Shown here: positions 13,980 through 21,408 of the stretch, piece after piece | Numbering within the stretch: position 1 is the first letter of the stretch | Layout: every line of letters starts with the position of its first letter | Origin: an uncultured delta proteobacterium | Lineage (GTDB): Bacteria > Desulfobacterota > Binatia > UBA9968 | Reading direction: 5' to 3' | NCBI GenBank assembly: GCA_963727625.1 | Contig: CAVSHR010000009.1 | Span: 32,001 to 96,000, forward strand | DNA: 64,000 nucleotides | Position numbers and translations under genes: made by a program | The notes under the pieces: model-generated | Databases searched by the model: none | What the model saw: only the letters and a program-made list of their open reading frames with translations | Told to the model about the DNA's origin: nothing

Positions 13980-15053
13980 TCAGTCCGGGCGAACTCTCGG
14001 CGCTTCCGGCGTCGCTCCGGCTCTTTCGGCCGCTTGCTGTTGGGCCGGTTCCAGCGCGTAGCCCGCGCCGATTAAGCTGTCGACCGTGACGAGCTTGGCC
14101 AATTCTTCTTCGGCCATTCCCTCGATCCCGGCGGGCCGCTGCGGCAAAACGAAATAACGAACATCGGAGGTGCTGTCCCAGACTCGGACCTCTTTACGCT
14201 CCGGAACTTTCAACCCGAACATATCCTGGACGCATTGGCGCGGGTTCTGGACGATATTGGTCCGGTAGCTTTCGTGCTTGTACCACCAGGGGGTGTCGCC
14301 GAGGATATCGTAGGGGTAGCAGGAGCACAGCGTACAGACGATCACGTTATGCACCGCGTCGGTGTTCTCGACGACGACCAGCTTACCGACTTTCCCCTGG
14401 TGCACACCCATTTCTCGAAGCGCTTCCCTGCCCGTCGTTAGGAGCGCCTCTTTAAAAGCCGGGTCCGTCCATGCCTTGGCCACAATCACGCCGCCGGCCC
14501 ATGGACGTTCTTCATGGAGCTGCCTCCAGCGCTGTTCCAACTCCGCTCGAGTTGCCCAGCCGCGCAGGATCAGCGCCTGAACGAAAACCTCGAGCAGCTC
14601 GGAATAGTCTTTCAGGTCCTGCTGCACACTCGCCATGCGCTCCTCAAGTTCACCTTGGTGTTCTTTCTTTTTGATCTTGAAAAAGTCGTCGTAGTCGCCG
14701 CGCTCCTTGCGGTTGTCCTCGGTCACCATGTCCATGCCTTCGACGGCGCGCGCCGAGACCAGAGCGATGCCCTTGACGTATTCATCGAGCCATTCCTCTA
14801 AGTAACGCACCCGGGCCTCGATGTTTTTTCCCTGCGGTTTGGCGATCTTGAAAAAATGGTCCTTCTTTTTGAGCGTCTCGCGAACTTTGAGCAGGTCATA
14901 AAACGTTACCACCCCGCGCCGCAGCAAGTATATAATCCTCGGCTCGAAGCGCTTGGCGCGATAATACTCCAGATCTTCTTCGACCGCTTTGATATGCGCG
15001 AGGTAGTCGTGCATATGACCTTCGAACGGCTTGTGTCCATGCTTTCCCGACAT
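13980..15053 (-). CDS. Co-type nitrile hydratase alpha / thiocyanate hydrolase gamma-like subunit with ~150-aa N-terminal extension
   Basis: VAKAWTDPAFK, VENT..VHNVIVCTLCSCYP, WYK..YR and VWDSTSDVRYFVLPQRP motifs; GGAGG RBS. Confidence 0.9.
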   Translation of the reverse strand: MSGKHGHKPFEGHMHDYLAHIKAVEEDLEYYRAKRFEPRIIYLLRRGVVTFYDLLKVRETLKKKDHFFKIAKPQGKNIEARVRYLEEWLDEYVKGIALVSARAVEGMDMVTEDNRKERGDYDDFFKIKKKEHQGELEERMASVQQDLKDYSELLEVFVQALILRGWATRAELEQRWRQLHEERPWAGGVIVAKAWTDPAFKEALLTTGREALREMGVHQGKVGKLVVVENTDAVHNVIVCTLCSCYPYDILGDTPWWYKHESYRTNIVQNPRQCVQDMFGLKVPERKEVRVWDSTSDVRYFVLPQRPAGIEGMAEEELAKLVTVDSLIGAGYALEPAQQQAAERAGATPEAPRVRPD

Positions 15054-15075: not shown

Positions 15076-16791
15076 TCAGTGGGTATCGAATATCTCCTGG
15101 AACTGTTTCAACTTGGCTTTGGTCGCTTCAGTCTCAGCTGCCGTCGGTTTCATGGCATCGACAGCCGGCGGCAAACAACCGAACTTCATCAGGCATGCCA
15201 TCAATAACAGCCGCGCCTTCGTGGCCGTTAAGTTACTGCCGGCAATCGATAACGGGTCGCGCGTCGGATCGACGAAGCCGCCGGCGTTGCCGCGGCCGAC
15301 CTTGACCACCGGCATGCCGCTAAACACGGCGCGCTTGAGCGCCGCATTGACAGAGTTGCTCATGGCGCCGAACGGCGCCGATCCTTCGGCGACAAAACCG
15401 GCCAATGGCGCATCGCGCAAGTTTTTCTCGATCCGGGCCAAGATGTCGACCTCGCTGCTGGCGTCGCCCGAAGTATCCGGCGGCAGGTAGCGCGCGTGCT
15501 TGACAATGGTGACCGTCGGAATCGCGCTAGCAAGCATCTCTCCATTCGCGTCTTTAACGGCGATGGCGATCTTTTCAACCTTTGAACCTTGAACCCTAGA
15601 ACCTTGAACGTCTCTGGGAAACTGCGTCAAATTCACCGCTGACCGGTGCGTATGCCGCTTCACCGGCTTAAATGTGAACTGCGGCGCTCCGGGATGGCCC
15701 ATGCGGCCGATGATGCCGCCATGACCGCCGGTGGCGACATAGCCGCCGGGGCGAGCGTCGGATTTTTGCACGTCGCGCGAAGTGAAAATCTGCTCGTCGA
15801 GGATCGCCACCGCGCCGACGCAGTCACGGCCGTTTTCATCGGCCCAGATCCGCGAAGCGATGTAGTCCACCGAGTCGACGATGTTGCGATCGCCGTCGTT
15901 GGCGATGGCGCCGTGAGGCCGCTGGGACGAATTTCCGCAAATCGGCACTGCCGTATCGATCAGCAAGTTCAGCCAGTAGGTCGTCTCTTCGACAAACGGG
16001 CTGCCTTCGAGCCAGATCGCGCCCAAGTATTTGCCGCTCGCGAGCGCCCGTTGAACGGTATTGGTCAGCCGCGCCAGCGCCGCCATGGGAGGTTCTTTGC
16101 GCAAGTAGCCTGGCCGGTAAGGAAAGAAATCGACGCCGCGCGTCTCGGGCGCGATGTCTCCTTCGCCGATATCGGTGCGCTCCTCGCCGCGCCGGCCGGT
16201 TGGATAACCGCCGGAAGGCAAGGCGCGGTAAAAATCGAAGTTGGCTTTTCTACTTATGAGGCATCCCACACCTTCGTCGGAGATACCTAAACGATCGATC
16301 TCTTCGAACAGCCGCGAGCCGTCGGGGAAGAAAGGAACGCGGCATAATTCGGCGGGCGCGTTCTTTTCCGTGCCGTCCATCTCCCATGCTTGTCCGTTCG
16401 CCTGCCGCGCCATGTAGGGCAGGGGATAGAGACCATCTTCAGGTCTGAGCGTTACTTCGTACACCGGCCGATCGATCGGGCTGGTGCGCTCCTTGTGAAT
16501 GATCCCGGCACCGTCGAGATAGCCGTCAGGAGGAGCGTAGAGTTCAGCCGAGTCGCGTTCGAGCGGATGGGCGCTAAACTGTTCGATGTAAACGGTTACC
16601 GGCGCCGCCAGGCGCTGCGGGCGCAGGACGTCGAAGCGCATCGACGACCCGTCCGCGTGGGCGCGCGCCGGCAAGCCGTACCGCTCGCGCGCTTTATTGC
16701 TGGTCACCAGCGGTTCGGTGTTCTGAATGGTTGCGGTGGGTCCGGAAAAAATCGCGATACGCGGTTTCTCGCCGCCGTCTACATGGACCAC
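15076..16791 (-). CDS. Large asparaginase/glutaminase-fold protein with divergent active-site motifs
   Basis: IAIFSGPTATI, EGSPFVEETTYWL, SQRP, GMPVVKVGR and GSNLTATKARLLLM follow the asparaginase motif order. Long insertion after the first motif. Confidence 0.7.
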   Translation of the reverse strand: MVHVDGGEKPRIAIFSGPTATIQNTEPLVTSNKARERYGLPARAHADGSSMRFDVLRPQRLAAPVTVYIEQFSAHPLERDSAELYAPPDGYLDGAGIIHKERTSPIDRPVYEVTLRPEDGLYPLPYMARQANGQAWEMDGTEKNAPAELCRVPFFPDGSRLFEEIDRLGISDEGVGCLISRKANFDFYRALPSGGYPTGRRGEERTDIGEGDIAPETRGVDFFPYRPGYLRKEPPMAALARLTNTVQRALASGKYLGAIWLEGSPFVEETTYWLNLLIDTAVPICGNSSQRPHGAIANDGDRNIVDSVDYIASRIWADENGRDCVGAVAILDEQIFTSRDVQKSDARPGGYVATGGHGGIIGRMGHPGAPQFTFKPVKRHTHRSAVNLTQFPRDVQGSRVQGSKVEKIAIAVKDANGEMLASAIPTVTIVKHARYLPPDTSGDASSEVDILARIEKNLRDAPLAGFVAEGSAPFGAMSNSVNAALKRAVFSGMPVVKVGRGNAGGFVDPTRDPLSIAGSNLTATKARLLLMACLMKFGCLPPAVDAMKPTAAETEATKAKLKQFQEIFDTH

Positions 16792-16854
16792 AGAATTCTC
16801 CTTCTAAATGAGATCGACTGTTTACGGCACAGGAGTAGTGCTAGATCGCCGATG

Positions 16855-17436
16855 CTACTTCAATTCGAACGGAATTTGTTCCGGTCCGTATCCCTGCCAA
16901 TAATTATTCGCCGCCGGATCGTAACGTCCCTGCAAGAAGCCGCCGGCCTTCTCGGCCCGGATGATAATCGCAACTGTCCGCTCCTCGCCGCTTTCCTCGG
17001 CGTGGATCTGGTAGGGCGGCACGAGGTCAACCTTGCCGGGCCCAACTCTGACATTTTCGCTGCGGCGAATCTCGGCGTAATCCGGCTTAGAGCCGTCGTC
17101 GAGGCGCTCGTAGCGTTCGATGCTTTCGTGCCCGTCGAGCACGCCGTAGAGAGTCCAGTTGTGCGCGTGGTCGTGAATCTGAGTGCGGGATTTGGGCGCC
17201 TTGATCAGGCCGTTGATCACGAACTTGTAGTCTGGGTCCTCGTAAAAGAGGAGATTTTGCGCCCTGCCGATTTGCTGGCAGGTCGGCCAACTCTTCGATT
17301 GTTCCCGAACCGACGGATCGGCGAGCAACGCCTGCAAAACAGGTGTCATCTTTTGCCAGCGAACCGATGGATCCTTTTCTTCAGCGAAAAGCTCGCGCGT
17401 CGACGCGATAAATTTTTCCACGGCGGTCTGAGGCAT
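16855..17436 (-). CDS. Cysteine dioxygenase-like cupin
   Basis: IHDH..WTLYGVLDGHE..Y plus a distal IH give a 3-His cupin metal site. Confidence 0.7.
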   Translation of the reverse strand: MPQTAVEKFIASTRELFAEEKDPSVRWQKMTPVLQALLADPSVREQSKSWPTCQQIGRAQNLLFYEDPDYKFVINGLIKAPKSRTQIHDHAHNWTLYGVLDGHESIERYERLDDGSKPDYAEIRRSENVRVGPGKVDLVPPYQIHAEESGEERTVAIIIRAEKAGGFLQGRYDPAANNYWQGYGPEQIPFELK

Positions 17437-17797
17437 GGAACCCTCCTTGGTACGGTTTTCAAGAGAGTGCTACTGGGTTAATTATTAGTCTGTCCGGAAG
17501 GCGGGCGTCAAGCGCGCCTAAGACAATCCAGCGTGCCAATCCGCGGATGAAAGGTTTAGAGAACTCAGAGAAACGAAAAACAAGGAGCGATGAAATCTTT
17601 TCCCCTACAGGTCATTCCCGAAACCTGACCAAGAAAGTGACAGCACAGCGGCTGCGTGGGACGCGACGACCTACCGAACCGCGTAAAGTCCATTAAACCA
17701 GCATTGCCGAACGACGGCCATTCAATTTGTAACTGTCCCCGCACTACACAAACGCTAAAATTACCGCTAGAATCCATGCTGCCTGGTAGTTCTAGTC

Positions 17798-18445
17798 ATG
17801 GAAGCATCAAAATTTAAGTTCCTGCTTGTCGGCGCCGTGGTCATCGCTATAGGGGTCGCTCTCGGCACGGCGCTATGGCTCAAGCTTGGACCCCATAACC
17901 AATTCAGTCGAGGTCTGCTCGAAGGCGGCGACGGCATGAAGGATTATGGTGCGGTTCCGGACTTCTCCTTGACGGAAAGAAACGGCAGTACCATAAATCT
18001 AACCCAGCTCCACGGCAAAATCTGGGTTGCAGACTTTATTTATACGAGCTGCACCGACACCTGTCCGCTGCAAACGGCGATGATGGCCAAGCTCCAAGAG
18101 AAATACGCAGACAAGCCGAATGTCCAACTGGTCTCGTTCAGTGTCGATCCCGAACGTGACACGCCCCAAGCGCTTACTGTCTACGCCGAGAAATACCAGT
18201 CCGATCCCAAACGCTGGTTTTTCTTGACCGGGCAGCGCAATCGAATTATTAGCCTGGTCCAGGAAGGTTTTCATTTGGCCGTGGCCGCGATCCCCGATGA
18301 TAAGGACCCGAGCGGCACGATTCCGCATAGCTCGCGCTTTGTGCTGGTGGACAAAAGCGGCCGAATTCGCGGGTATTACGACAGCCGCGAGCTGGAAGCG
18401 TTCGTGCGCCTTAAGAATGACATCGATACTTTGGTGAAAGGGTAA
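17798..18445 (+). CDS. SCO family copper chaperone
   Basis: N-terminal TM segment, FIYTSCTDTCP (CxxxC), SVDPERDTP and HSSRFVLVD. Confidence 0.92.
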   Translation: MEASKFKFLLVGAVVIAIGVALGTALWLKLGPHNQFSRGLLEGGDGMKDYGAVPDFSLTERNGSTINLTQLHGKIWVADFIYTSCTDTCPLQTAMMAKLQEKYADKPNVQLVSFSVDPERDTPQALTVYAEKYQSDPKRWFFLTGQRNRIISLVQEGFHLAVAAIPDDKDPSGTIPHSSRFVLVDKSGRIRGYYDSRELEAFVRLKNDIDTLVKG

Positions 18446-18450
18446 CAAAG

Positions 18451-19323
18451 ATGGCCAACGACAGAAACAAAAGAGCCAGGCAACCGACCACCAACTCGCT
18501 TGCGCGCCAGGGCCCCAACTGGCCATTGTTTGTTCTCGCCTTGATCGGCATGGGCTTGTCCGGCTATCTCACCTTTTCCGCGTGGCAGGGAAGTCAAGTT
18601 GCTTTCTGTACCGAAGGCGCCGGTTGTGATGTCGTGCTCAATAGCCGCTGGTCAACCCTCCTAGGCATGCCGACTGCGTTCTGGGGTTTCCTTACCTATG
18701 CGCTCCTCGCCGCTGTCGCCTGGAACAAGAATGCCGCGGATCAATGGCGCTGGGCTTGGGTGATTTCTTTATTCGGGCTGCTCTACAGCCTCTATTTGAC
18801 TTCGATCTCTTTCTTCGAGTTGCAAGCTGCTTGTCCCTATTGCCTGACCTCGCTTGCTTTGATGACGGCGATTTTTATTTTGCTGACTTTCCAGAAGCCG
18901 AGCAGTCTTGCGAAATTTTCCTGGGGGCCATGGTTGGCCAAAACGGTCGGAACCGCCGCTGTCGCCATCGTATTACTTCATACATATTATGCCGGCTTTT
19001 GGGGCAATGCTCCCGGACCGGAGGATCCTTGGATTCGCGGCTTGGCCGAACATCTGTCGAAAAGCGACGCTAAATTTTACGGCGCCTCCTGGTGCCCGCA
19101 TTGCAAAGACCAGAAAGAGATGTTCGGCAGTTCGGTTGAACGCATTCCCTATGTGGAGTGCAGCCCCGGCGGACCCCAAGCGCCCCAAGCGCAGGTGTGT
19201 AAAGATAAAAATATTGAGAGTTACCCCACTTGGATCATTAACGGACAGCGCTATACCGGCGTCCAACCGTTGGATACCCTCGCCCAGTTGACCCAGTTCC
19301 AGTATCAAGGAGACAAACCATGA
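18451..19323 (+). CDS. Vitamin K epoxide reductase (VKOR)-thioredoxin fusion
   Basis: C-x5-C loop (CTEGAGCDVVLNS), TM CPYC, then a C-terminal YGASWCPHC..YPTW thioredoxin domain. Confidence 0.9.
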   Translation: MANDRNKRARQPTTNSLARQGPNWPLFVLALIGMGLSGYLTFSAWQGSQVAFCTEGAGCDVVLNSRWSTLLGMPTAFWGFLTYALLAAVAWNKNAADQWRWAWVISLFGLLYSLYLTSISFFELQAACPYCLTSLALMTAIFILLTFQKPSSLAKFSWGPWLAKTVGTAAVAIVLLHTYYAGFWGNAPGPEDPWIRGLAEHLSKSDAKFYGASWCPHCKDQKEMFGSSVERIPYVECSPGGPQAPQAQVCKDKNIESYPTWIINGQRYTGVQPLDTLAQLTQFQYQGDKP

Positions 19324-19790
19324 GAGGGTGCGATTGGCAATATAAGATAACCTTGAATCTGGCCGCCGTTGCGCTGGTTATGGCCTTCTGGCCCGCGGTC
19401 GCGCCGGCCGACCCGTCAAAATATCCGGAATTCGCCCAACAGACGGTTCCTCCGGATGTCAAACTTGTCTTTATTAGCATCGAGGAACTCGTCAAGGAAT
19501 TGAAAGGTAGAATCCGACCGGTGATCATCGACGTCCGTTCAACGGAGGAATTCCGCGAGGTGCACATTCTGGGCGCGGTTTCCGCGCCGCTGGCGGAATT
19601 CAAAGATTACATCAAAAGCATCCCGCGTGATCGGCCGGTCGTGCTTTATTGAGCATGCCCTCATCACCTGGCCAGTCTGGCCTATGGCATTCTCTACGAA
19701 GACGGCTACCGCAACATGAAAGTGCTCAACGAAGGAATCGTCGGTTGGTACCAGAAGCGCTACCCCATGGAAGGAACTAAGGCTCCCTGA
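19320..19790 (+). CDS. Exported rhodanese-domain protein, probable selenoprotein (UGA at 19650-19652)
   Basis: Signal-like N-terminus and IIDVRS..EF..HILGA. The frame continues past TGA as (U)ACPHHLA..GYRNMKVLNEGIVGW, completing the rhodanese fold; true stop at 19788-19790. Confidence 0.85.
19653..19690 (+). promoter_or_regulatory. Candidate bacterial SECIS hairpin
   Basis: Immediately 3' of the UGA: upper stem GGCC-AGTCT-GGCC (19670-19682) with G in the loop; lower pairing ATGCC (19655-59)/GGCAT (19686-90). Confidence 0.65.
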
Positions 19791-19799
19791 CCACAAGAC

Positions 19800-20495
19800 A
19801 TGGCTCGCAAGAACGCGGTGATCCTTCTTAGCGGCGGCATCGACTCCGCTACCGCCGCCGCAATCGCTAAACAGGTCGGTTTTGACCTGCACGCGCTAAG
19901 CTTTTCTTACGGCCAGCGCCACGAGCGCGAGATCGTGTACGCCGGCAAAGTCGCGGCGTTCTTGCAGGCCAAAACCCACCGGGTGATCCGCTTCGATCTA
20001 AGAGCAATCGGCGGTTCCGCACTCACCGATCAGATCGAAGTACCGAAAGGACGAAGCGAGACGGAGATTTCAACCGGCATACCGGTCACCTACGTGCCGG
20101 CGCGCAACACGATCTTCCTCTCCTTCGCGCTCGCCCTCGCCGAGCGCATCGAAGCGCAGGATATTTTTTTCGGCGCCAATCAACTCGATTACAGCGGCTA
20201 TCCCGATTGCCGCGAGGCCTATATCCGCGCCTTTGAAACGATGGCGAACCTCGCCACCAAGGCCGGCATCGAGGGCAAGTCTCGGCTGCACATTCAGACA
20301 CCGTTGCTGCAGATGACTAAAGCGAAAATCATTGCCACCGGCCTGAAGCTCGGCCTCGACTATGGATTGACCTGGAGCTGTTACGACCCGGTGCACGATG
20401 GGCGCGCCTGCGGCCGCTGCGATAGCTGCCAGCTCAGGCTTAAAGGATTCAAAGAGGCAGGAAGCGTCGATCCGATCGCCTACGCCGACCATTAG
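19800..20495 (+). CDS. queC: 7-cyano-7-deazaguanine synthase
   Basis: LSGGIDS, TYVPARN, YPDCR and TWSCY..CGRCDSC motifs. Confidence 0.95.
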   Translation: MARKNAVILLSGGIDSATAAAIAKQVGFDLHALSFSYGQRHEREIVYAGKVAAFLQAKTHRVIRFDLRAIGGSALTDQIEVPKGRSETEISTGIPVTYVPARNTIFLSFALALAERIEAQDIFFGANQLDYSGYPDCREAYIRAFETMANLATKAGIEGKSRLHIQTPLLQMTKAKIIATGLKLGLDYGLTWSCYDPVHDGRACGRCDSCQLRLKGFKEAGSVDPIAYADH

Positions 20496-20517
20496 GATTT
20501 CGACGCAACAATTTGAA

Positions 20518-21408
20518 ATGTTAACCGCCCCCTTCACGCCCGAATTTCTCAGCCAATTGGAAGCGCTCAGGCTGCGCACGCGAAAGGAATTCTTGGGCAA
20601 CCACCCGGGCAGCTATTCTTCGCCACGGCGCGGCACGAGCTTGGAATTTTCCGACTACCGCCGTTACAGCCCGGGCGACGACCTGCGCTACCTCGACTGG
20701 GGCATTTATGCGCGCAGCGACCGGCTCTACATAAAAGTCTTCCGTGAAGAGGTCGACTTATTTGCCTACGTGTTCATCGACGCCAGCGCTTCGATGGCCT
20801 TCCCGTCGCGTGAGCAAAAGTTTTTGCCGGCTAGTCACGTGGCGCTCTCTCTCGCCTACGTCGTTCTAGCCAACCACGACCACGTCAAATTCCATTTGTT
20901 GCAGGACGGCGCCGGTGCCGCCTCGCCCTTTTATCGCGGTCGGCGTCGCATGACAGATTGCGCTGATTTCGCCAACTCGGCGAGCCCCGCCGGACCGCTG
21001 GAGCTGGCCGCTTCCCTAGGCGAGCACTTGAAGCGCCTGCGCCGGCCGGGGAAAGCCATTCTCATCTCGGATTTTCTCATGCCCGCCGCGGCTTATCAGC
21101 AGGGGCTTAACTTGCTACGCGCCTTCAATCTCGACATCGTCGCCATTCAAGTGCTGTCGCGCTATGAAGTCGATCCGCCGTTTCCCACCGGTACCGTCGC
21201 CTTGGTCGACAGCGAGAGCCAAACCGAGATCAAGCATCAGTGGAGTACGGCCGCCCGGCGCGAATATCAGAGCAAATTGGCGCATCACAACGCGGAGATT
21301 CGCAGTTTCTGCCACCAGAGCGGTATCCACTATTCATTCTATGTGACCGATCGTGATCTCGGCGAATTTGTCTTCGCCACCCTGCCGGCCGTCGGCCTGT
21401 TCAAGTAA
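20518..21408 (+). CDS. DUF58 domain protein
   Basis: GTSLEFSDYRRYSPGDDLRYLDW, DASASM and ISDF motifs. Confidence 0.9.
   Translation: MLTAPFTPEFLSQLEALRLRTRKEFLGNHPGSYSSPRRGTSLEFSDYRRYSPGDDLRYLDWGIYARSDRLYIKVFREEVDLFAYVFIDASASMAFPSREQKFLPASHVALSLAYVVLANHDHVKFHLLQDGAGAASPFYRGRRRMTDCADFANSASPAGPLELAASLGEHLKRLRRPGKAILISDFLMPAAAYQQGLNLLRAFNLDIVAIQVLSRYEVDPPFPTGTVALVDSESQTEIKHQWSTAARREYQSKLAHHNAEIRSFCHQSGIHYSFYVTDRDLGEFVFATLPAVGLFK

Follow-up and report, generated by a model that had tools for sequence, protein, structure and literature searches.

The stretch analysed here, referred to as the window, comprises 64,000 nucleotides from an uncultured bacterium of the Binatia, and corresponds to C9:32001-96000 of its 6.6-Mb, 15-contig assembly (G000; 98.45% complete, 6.3% contamination). 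At 19320..19790 on the forward strand it carries a gene that, in our view, very probably encodes an exported rhodanese selenoprotein with a U-x-C active-site motif, in which selenocysteine (Sec, U) takes the catalytic column of the rhodanese fold and its decoding is directed by a small hairpin. In the list of open reading frames (ORFs) the gene is cut short: the ORF at 19320-19652 (+) specifies 110 residues that end with ...RDRPVVLY, after which comes the TGA at 19650-19652. A preceding interpretation of this DNA, the sequence-only reading, had placed this end exactly at the position of the catalytic Cys, and had the frame continue with TGA-GCA-TGC (U-A-C-P-H-H) over 45 codons with the typical GY.N..VL.EG..GW tail. 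Translation with TGA as U confirmed this. The frame (ACPHHLASLAYGILYEDGYRNMKVLNEGIVGWYQKRYPMEGTKAP) runs on for 45 codons to a second TGA at 19788-19790, giving 156 residues in total, and the part from residue 111 on opens with U-A-C-P-H-H-L and closes with G-T-K-A-P.

A UGA codon at the catalytic column of a conserved rhodanese

The full-length product matches the Pfam family Rhodanese (PF00581) over residues 58-145 (2e-15, 57.5 bits versus a cut-off of 22.2), and this match crosses U111. An AlphaFold2 model computed from the alignment had a mean predicted local distance difference test score of 86, with means of 85-97 for the 10-residue blocks from residue 41 on. The best neighbours found by Foldseek in the PDB were single-domain rhodaneses, namely 3nhv (E 3.5e-9, root-mean-square deviation 1.6, 109 columns), followed by 6mxv and 3gk5. 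In a profile alignment U111, specified by the UGA at 19650..19652 (+), falls on the catalytic C of the PDB rhodaneses 6mxv (LYCGSGFRS) and 3tp9 (VYCRTGGRS), as the sequence-only reading had supposed. The U-x-C loop is one residue longer than the loops of these two proteins and lacks their R/S tail. The putative second redox residue of this U-x-C-P-[HR]-H loop, singled out by its conservation, is Cys113, encoded by the TGC at 19656..19658 (+).

The N-terminus carries a predicted Sec-type signal peptide (Sec here denoting the export route), which covers residues 1-30 (19320..19409, +) with cleavage after A-P-A. Judged by eye and from the hydropathy profile, this region has the basic residues R2 and K9, a hydrophobic core formed by residues 10-24 (with a mean Kyte-Doolittle value of 2.0-2.4), and A28-P29-A30 followed by D31, an AxA pattern in front of DP. 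The underlying pattern, small-x-small followed by D/N-P, is kept in 31 aligned sequences, and the N-terminus contains neither a twin-arginine motif nor a lipobox. We infer from these sequence features that the rhodanese is exported.

Orthologues were collected from 61 related genomes including G000, with an orthologue-level match defined as E 1.2e-29 or better. Such a match was present in 44 of the 61 genomes, and 43 of these 44 contain the TGA. At the level of translated loci, the TGA occupies the identical codon in 30 of 30 close orthologues and in 13 of 14 distant ones, always in the context Y-U-[AQE]-C-P-[HR]-H. One of the close loci, L026, belongs to the unpublished genome G005, and none of the conclusions rests on it. 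The genome without the TGA is a Binatia relative (G036; locus L050 = L113) in which YGNRPRH replaces Y-U-x-C-P-R-H, with both redox residues gone; it keeps the VKOR and QueC neighbours of the gene, which are described below, as well as SelA. An alignment of 31 sequences contains 24 invariant columns, 16 of them counted from the UGA on: the Sec column, C113, P114, H116, L117, L120, A121, R131, N132, V135, L136, E138, G139, G142, W143, and P149. Position 115 is variable and holds either H or R.

A scan of named-species genomes left 80 loci, which overlap the genomes mentioned above so that the two counts are not independent. Fifty-two of these loci have TGA, 27 have Cys (YCACPHH), and one has the GNR form, which agrees with the sequence-only reading, in which homologues were expected to show Cys or UGA at this column; the one locus outside this pattern has lost both residues. 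Cys113 is present in all 31 aligned sequences and in 79 of the 80 named loci, and the exception has neither the U nor the C. A metagenomic Cys form, P0044, reads LYCACPHH. A tree of the Sec and Cys forms has an unresolved backbone (23 of 79 inner branches open) and long branches, and it gives no first form from which a direction between Cys and Sec could be read.

Public annotation cuts the protein at the UGA. The NCBI records HME61764.1 and MGH7875604.1 are 111-112 aa long and are annotated as 'rhodanese-like domain-containing protein'. A search of protein collections returned 681 relatives, and among the best 120 of these all but two end exactly at [VI]LY; one of the two has Cys at the column, and the other, the metagenomic record P0003, has a W that stems from reading TGA as W. 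The U-x-C rhodanese is widespread in metagenome-assembled genomes (MAGs) of the Binatia type and is systematically truncated in annotation. Since the form is common and is cut at the UGA in 118 of the best 120 relatives, a curated model would correct many records at once.

Many independent assemblies carry the same TGA, which excludes an assembly error. Among sequencing runs that share this sequence no RNA run was listed, the best DNA runs had 0.26 and 0.20 of the sampled words, and Logan contigs from four runs matched 19348-19508 and 19731-19900, on either side of the UGA. It is extremely unlikely that the TGA is a real stop, or marks a pseudogene, and leaves only a 110-residue rhodanese fragment without active site: this is how HME61764.1 and MGH7875604.1 present the gene, and the fold of the lone hairpin is not significant (see below), but all 43 orthologues with the TGA conserve the 45 codons behind it at the protein level, these codons complete the Pfam domain and the predicted fold, neither the 16 invariant columns nor the local synonymous dip described below would persist in a decaying tail, and the Cys forms are full length. 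Hardly more credible is a selenium-free read-through of the UGA, whether by near-cognate insertion of Trp or Cys or under a reassigned code, as the translation of P0003 with W would have it: TGA is the ordinary stop of 7 out of 11 neighbouring Pfam-supported genes (with the terminal stop of the rhodanese itself counted) and the SelA and SelB frames are open under translation table 11, which excludes a reassigned code; Cys at this column in the non-Sec homologues is the usual Sec/Cys signature, and the genome contains a complete Sec machinery.

This machinery comprises selA, selB, selC, and selD, which the sequence-only reading had named as the genes to look for and which are all found in G000. 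The tRNA-Sec scored 76.7 bits versus a cut-off of 47 and was called by ARAGORN as SeC with anticodon tca, and the genome further encodes SelA, SelD, and, in a frame of 638 aa, a SelB wing domain. Of the relatives, 5 were tested for SelA and all 5 have it. Since tRNA-Sec, SelB, SelA, and a Sec-containing SelD are present, Sec decoding appears to be in use in this organism. The genes selA, selB, and selD are consecutive at G000:C5:715340-719466, and the tRNA-Sec gene lies ~50 kb off at C5:768830-768920. The selD gene has one in-frame TGA (...KAAG-U-AAKLGP), with a GUGCAA-GUC-UUGCAC hairpin 33 nt past it. On the strength of the sequence data as a whole, we have very little doubt that the rhodanese gene is a genuine selenoprotein gene whose UGA is recoded to Sec.

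All 30 close orthologues have TAT as the Tyr codon in front of the UGA (19647-19649), although TAC is common at the other Tyr codons of the gene. The invariant TAT may reflect an effect of codon context on recoding.

A candidate SECIS hairpin behind the UGA

We propose that the UGA at 19650 would be decoded as Sec by the SelA/SelB/SelC/SelD system of the genome, and that insertion would be directed by the small apical hairpin GGCCA-GUC-UGGCC at 19670..19682 (+), with its loop 22 nt downstream, as the putative core of a selenocysteine insertion sequence (SECIS). The hairpin is made up of GGCC at 19670-19673, AGTCT at 19674-19678, and GGCC at 19679-19682, and its loop starts 21-22 nt past the UGA. 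The sequence-only reading had described a SECIS-like hairpin here; its sequence, its position, and a loop distance of about 22 nt held up. A small apical loop with a G is the common feature of bacterial SECIS elements, according to the accessible part of PMC1088965.

The 5-bp apical stem, formed by columns 21-25 with columns 29-33 past the UGA, is paired in 98.5% of the cells of an alignment of 43 sequences, 41 of which are distinct. Evidence for the hairpin comes from the 30 close orthologues, in which the synonymous diversity of codons +5 to +12 (CAC CTG GCC AGT YTG GCY TAT GGC) is 0.111 versus a mean of 0.387, which is the lowest value of 82 eight-codon windows and was equalled by 0 of 5000 column shuffles. 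The only variable sites in the hairpin are the third loop base (C/U) and the closing pair, where G-C changes to G-U in 11 sequences. The A-GUC-U apex is identical in the rhodanese and selD hairpins of G000, although the distance from the UGA differs (22 versus 33 nt). A possible outer helix of the SECIS spans 19651..19694 (+), with 19651-19659 pairing with 19686-19694. It is weak and limited to close relatives: it appears in the minimum free energy fold of the window sequence and of the 7 other close orthologues that were folded, and is 86% paired overall, yet broken at several pairs in 6-11 of 41 sequences.

Several results weigh against a functional hairpin. A single-sequence fold of 71 nt was not significant (z = -0.31), as 66 of 200 shuffled sequences folded equally well or better. 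The 41 distinct sequences contain no compensatory changes in the apical stem, three of the five pairs being invariant, and counting pairs in this stem did not exceed the shuffle controls. RNAalifold, run on the 43 sequences, did not predict the hairpin and gave other weak pairs instead (-2.48 kcal/mol), and a search of Rfam with E values up to 10 returned no family match but two matches at chance level. Finally, one pair of the stem is broken in four distant sequences, which have the peptide HLSRLAF. These sequences could instead form a shifted 7-bp hairpin, GCCACCU-GUCC-AGGU(U)GGC, in which one U is bulged and the loop reads GUCC. Weighing both sides, we regard the hairpin as a likely SECIS.

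Gene neighbourhood and proposed function

The rhodanese gene is part of a conserved cluster. Its first gene, at 17798..18445 (+), encodes a 215-aa member of the SCO1/SenC family (Pfam SCO1-SenC, 1.9e-30) and is one of several paralogues, as G000 holds 4 SCO1 matches over the cut-off. The second, at 18451..19323 (+), encodes a 290-aa fusion of VKOR (Pfam VKOR, 2.1e-26) with a C-terminal thioredoxin-like domain, for which there is a weak Thioredoxin match at residues 209-278. In 35 sequences of this fusion C53, C59, C128, C131, and W214-C215-P216-x-C218 are invariant, so that both the membrane part and the thioredoxin part have a CxxC motif, and the fusion is the sole VKOR match in G000. The gap between the SCO1 and VKOR genes is 5 nt, and the VKOR and rhodanese genes overlap by 4 nt, the rhodanese ATG sharing ATGA with the stop codon of the fusion gene. 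A Shine-Dalgarno-like AAGGAG, as read from the sequence, lies at 19307..19312 (+), 7 nt before this ATG. The rhodanese is probably translationally coupled to the VKOR fusion, a quinone-linked thiol oxidase.

The order SCO1-VKOR-rhodanese is found in 46 of the 52 Sec-form named loci, in three families, and recurs in a distant group of genomes (g9). The other Sec-form loci comprise three with VKOR and a contig end upstream, one with SCO1 only, one with QueC only on a cut contig, and one with neither SCO1 nor VKOR. Downstream, at a distance of 9 nt, follows QueC (19800..20495, +; Pfam QueC, 3.8e-72). Because QueC adjoins the rhodanese only within the family of the window itself, and is absent beside the gene in g9, it is probably not a functional part of the cluster.

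As to function, we tentatively propose a selenium-boosted thiol oxidoreductase that forms a redox relay with the VKOR-thioredoxin fusion, and not a plain thiosulfate sulfurtransferase, an account that we consider almost as likely to be right as wrong. Replacing the catalytic cysteine, the Sec forms the U-x-C-P-[HR]-H loop together with the invariant Cys two residues on. In the periplasm this pair would cycle between the selenol/thiol state and an intramolecular selenenylsulfide, and electrons from the rhodanese would pass first to the thioredoxin-like part of the VKOR fusion and then to quinone. The rhodanese and the co-encoded copper chaperone SCO1 would belong to one pathway. We infer the selenenylsulfide, the partners, and the substrate. 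That the U/C pair may be a redox couple is suggested by the fact that both residues are invariant and are lost together in G036, which keeps SelA, by the fusion of the same loop to an electron carrier, cytochrome c, in another phylum (see below), and by the nature of the partner genes, which encode thiol or copper redox proteins. Other points count against this relay. Since the fusion is the only VKOR of the genome, it may be a general disulfide oxidase instead of a dedicated partner, and gene neighbourhood alone is weak evidence of binding. Moreover, the forms with Cys in place of Sec have SCO1 or VKOR neighbours in none of 27 cases.

A different role, which we regard as unlikely although well within reach, is that of a classical sulfurtransferase, in which Sec111 would carry sulfane sulfur (Se-S-) from thiosulfate or polysulfide to a periplasmic acceptor, with Cys113 as auxiliary residue. 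The rhodanese fold with Sec at its catalytic column fits such a role, and other rhodanese selenoproteins are listed as sulfurtransferases. However, one catalytic residue would suffice for this chemistry, yet Cys113, Pro114, and His116 are invariant, and the loop, longer by one residue than those of 6mxv and 3tp9, does without their R/S tail. In addition, no sulfur-oxidation gene was seen in the cluster.

We consider it improbable that the protein is a periplasmic Cu(I) carrier, which would bind copper through Sec111, Cys113, and His116 and pass it to SCO1 in place of the chaperone PCuAC. What speaks for it is that in 46 of the 52 Sec-form loci the gene is clustered with SCO1, and in g9 and an Acidiferrales MAG also with Cox11-like genes. 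Moreover, the accessible part of PMC13188914 lists other metal-binding motifs with Sec, namely those of MbdU and of a Cu/Zn efflux transporter with UxC. In G000, for all its 98.45% completeness, no PCuAC was found, and among the 61 relatives it was found in one, G034, which is the genome whose Sec-rhodanese has no SCO1 or VKOR neighbour. We nevertheless rejected the absence of PCuAC as support for a copper carrier, as it is missing in 60 of the 61 relatives with or without the rhodanese. It is equally missing from nine g9 genomes that have no rhodanese orthologue, so that there is no complementary pattern and PCuAC does not discriminate between the readings. Furthermore, His115 is not conserved (H or R), and the cytochrome c fusion in Kofleriaceae points to electron transfer.

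Related to this is a selenolate-based partner of SCO1, to which we likewise give a small chance. It would either donate Cu(I) where PCuAC is not found, or serve as a rapid selenol/thiol switch controlling the redox state of SCO1, the electron sink being the VKOR-thioredoxin fusion and quinone. If so, the assembly of respiratory copper centres in Binatia would depend on selenium. The gene order also makes it possible to test whether selenium use is linked to periplasmic disulfide formation and to the biogenesis of copper centres in this uncultured and widespread soil lineage.

Other observations concern the surroundings of the cluster. A Cox11-like gene lies 5' of SCO1 in g9 and in an Acidiferrales MAG. 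One such gene from the distant group (L049:14-1177, +) precedes SCO1 and encodes a 388-aa protein with a Cox11/CtaG domain and DUF4382; homologues of this protein lie upstream in 26 of 124 loci searched, and closer relatives often keep only the DUF4382-like half. In G000 itself Cox11 is sited elsewhere, at C6:175382, beside another SCO1 copy. The window ORF at 16390-17478 was considered as a Cox11-like gene and rejected, as it has no Pfam match and no likeness to the L049 protein, and it is probably not a gene. Farther upstream in the window, a nitrile-hydratase alpha-chain domain occurs in a 357-aa protein encoded at 13980-15053 (-), next to the gene for an asparaginase-like protein of 571 aa at 15076-16791 (-), and an asparaginase-like gene of similar kind is located 1.1 kb downstream of the Sec-rhodanese in locus L105. 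Downstream, a DUF58 ORF (20398-21408) overlaps the end of QueC by 98 nt, and its true start is probably located further downstream. Outside the window, at G000:C9:339060-339272 (+), there is a SCO1-like sequence (21.6 bits, below the cut-off) in a 205-aa frame with one in-frame TGA.

Comparison with known rhodaneses

The sequence-only reading noted that Sec-containing rhodaneses had already been reported, and called an exported UxC form less familiar. Both statements agree with the 2026 review PMC13188914, the accessible part of which gives five rhodanese selenoprotein forms: UxxS, UxxG, CxU (NF041203), a second UxxG, and UxxxxU (TsoB). A UxU rhodanese variant from Olavius symbionts is described in the accessible part of PMC1976440. 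The UxC form is neither among the forms in these parts of PMC13188914 nor the same as the UxU variant of PMC1976440. We therefore regard the U-x-C rhodanese as an uncatalogued variant of the known rhodanese selenoproteins, a comparison that for forms 1, 2, and 4 is by motif only and that leaves room for an earlier listing under another name. Literature searches found no paper on Binatia or Binatota with selenocysteine or a selenoprotein.

A known periplasmic protein with which it can be compared is PspE of E. coli, likewise a small exported single-domain rhodanese. Unlike the protein described here, it contains a single Cys and lacks both Sec and a second redox residue, and the PspE models NF007627 and TIGR02981 gave 29.4 and 28.7 bits versus cut-offs of 102 and 126.3, by which membership of this family was rejected. 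Overexpressed PspE can reportedly restore disulfide formation without DsbA, and for this reason it may serve as a precedent for a periplasmic rhodanese in thiol oxidation.

Also related are the Cys forms from MAGs of Kofleriaceae (Myxococcota), WOR-3, and Rokubacteria/Methylomirabilota, which have the same C-A-C-P-H-H-L loop and 34-50% identity over the domain. In the two Kofleriaceae MAG forms tested, L125 and L134, the rhodanese is the C-terminal domain behind two cytochrome c domains. These dihaem cytochrome c-rhodanese proteins with a YCACPHH loop are located at L125:1756-3387 (+; 544 aa) and L134:2212-3363 (+; 384 aa). The genes around them were not informative, and no paper was found on a dihaem cytochrome c-rhodanese fusion or on its CXC motif.

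G000 contains further rhodanese domains with an in-frame TGA. At C14:7560-7877 (-), locus L059 combines a DedA-like membrane domain with a rhodanese of CxU order (LYCS-TGA-PNEATSARV) that scores 77.2 bits to NF041203, which is below its cut-off. A second, partial-looking copy, L062, lies 2.4 kb away at C14:5139-5279 (-), and many relatives have similar frames of ~383 aa that contain a single TGA. In locus L065 (C2:630507-630857, +) an N-terminal rhodanese with VYCAGPT-TGA-PLGKQ (C-x4-U) precedes a long membrane, channel-like region within a frame of 418 aa; behind the TGA lies a stable hairpin, and the C-x4-U motif is not among the forms in the accessible part of the PMC13188914 table. As U-x-C, CxU (L059), and CAGPT-U (L065) coexist in G000, the organism appears to place Sec at three different positions in the loop of one fold. 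With CxU and UxC as mirror images on that fold, a single genome provides a natural experiment on which of the two redox residues gains from selenium.

Among the catalogued forms, the closest is form 3. Its model NF041203 (rhodanese_LYCAU) is the best NCBIfam match of the U-x-C rhodanese, with 62.4 bits (3.2e-17) and with 55.5 bits in the genome search. Membership was rejected, since these scores stay below the cut-off of 115 and the order is LY-U-A-C instead of C-x-U. TsoB, a rhodanese/DsbD fusion (NF045694), was rejected as well, with 21 bits versus a cut-off of 805 and a single domain of 156 aa. In common with forms 1, 2, and 4 and TsoB as given in the accessible part of PMC13188914, the protein has Sec in the rhodanese active-site loop and is predicted by genomics only. 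The motif sets it apart from these forms, being U-A-C-P here and UxxS, UxxG, UxxG, and UxxxxU in forms 1, 2, 4, and 5. With form 3 and the UxU variant it shares a single rhodanese domain and two chalcogen residues with a single residue between them and a Pro behind them ([CU]-x-[CU]-P). In contrast to the CxU order of form 3, the putative Sec takes the catalytic column and Cys the +2 position, followed by P-[HR]-H-L instead of P-N-E, and unlike form 3 this rhodanese has a predicted signal peptide and the SCO1/VKOR gene order. The U-x-C form thus differs from the catalogued rhodanese selenoproteins in having Sec at the catalytic column and Cys at +2, in its predicted export, and in its link to SCO1 and the VKOR-thioredoxin fusion.

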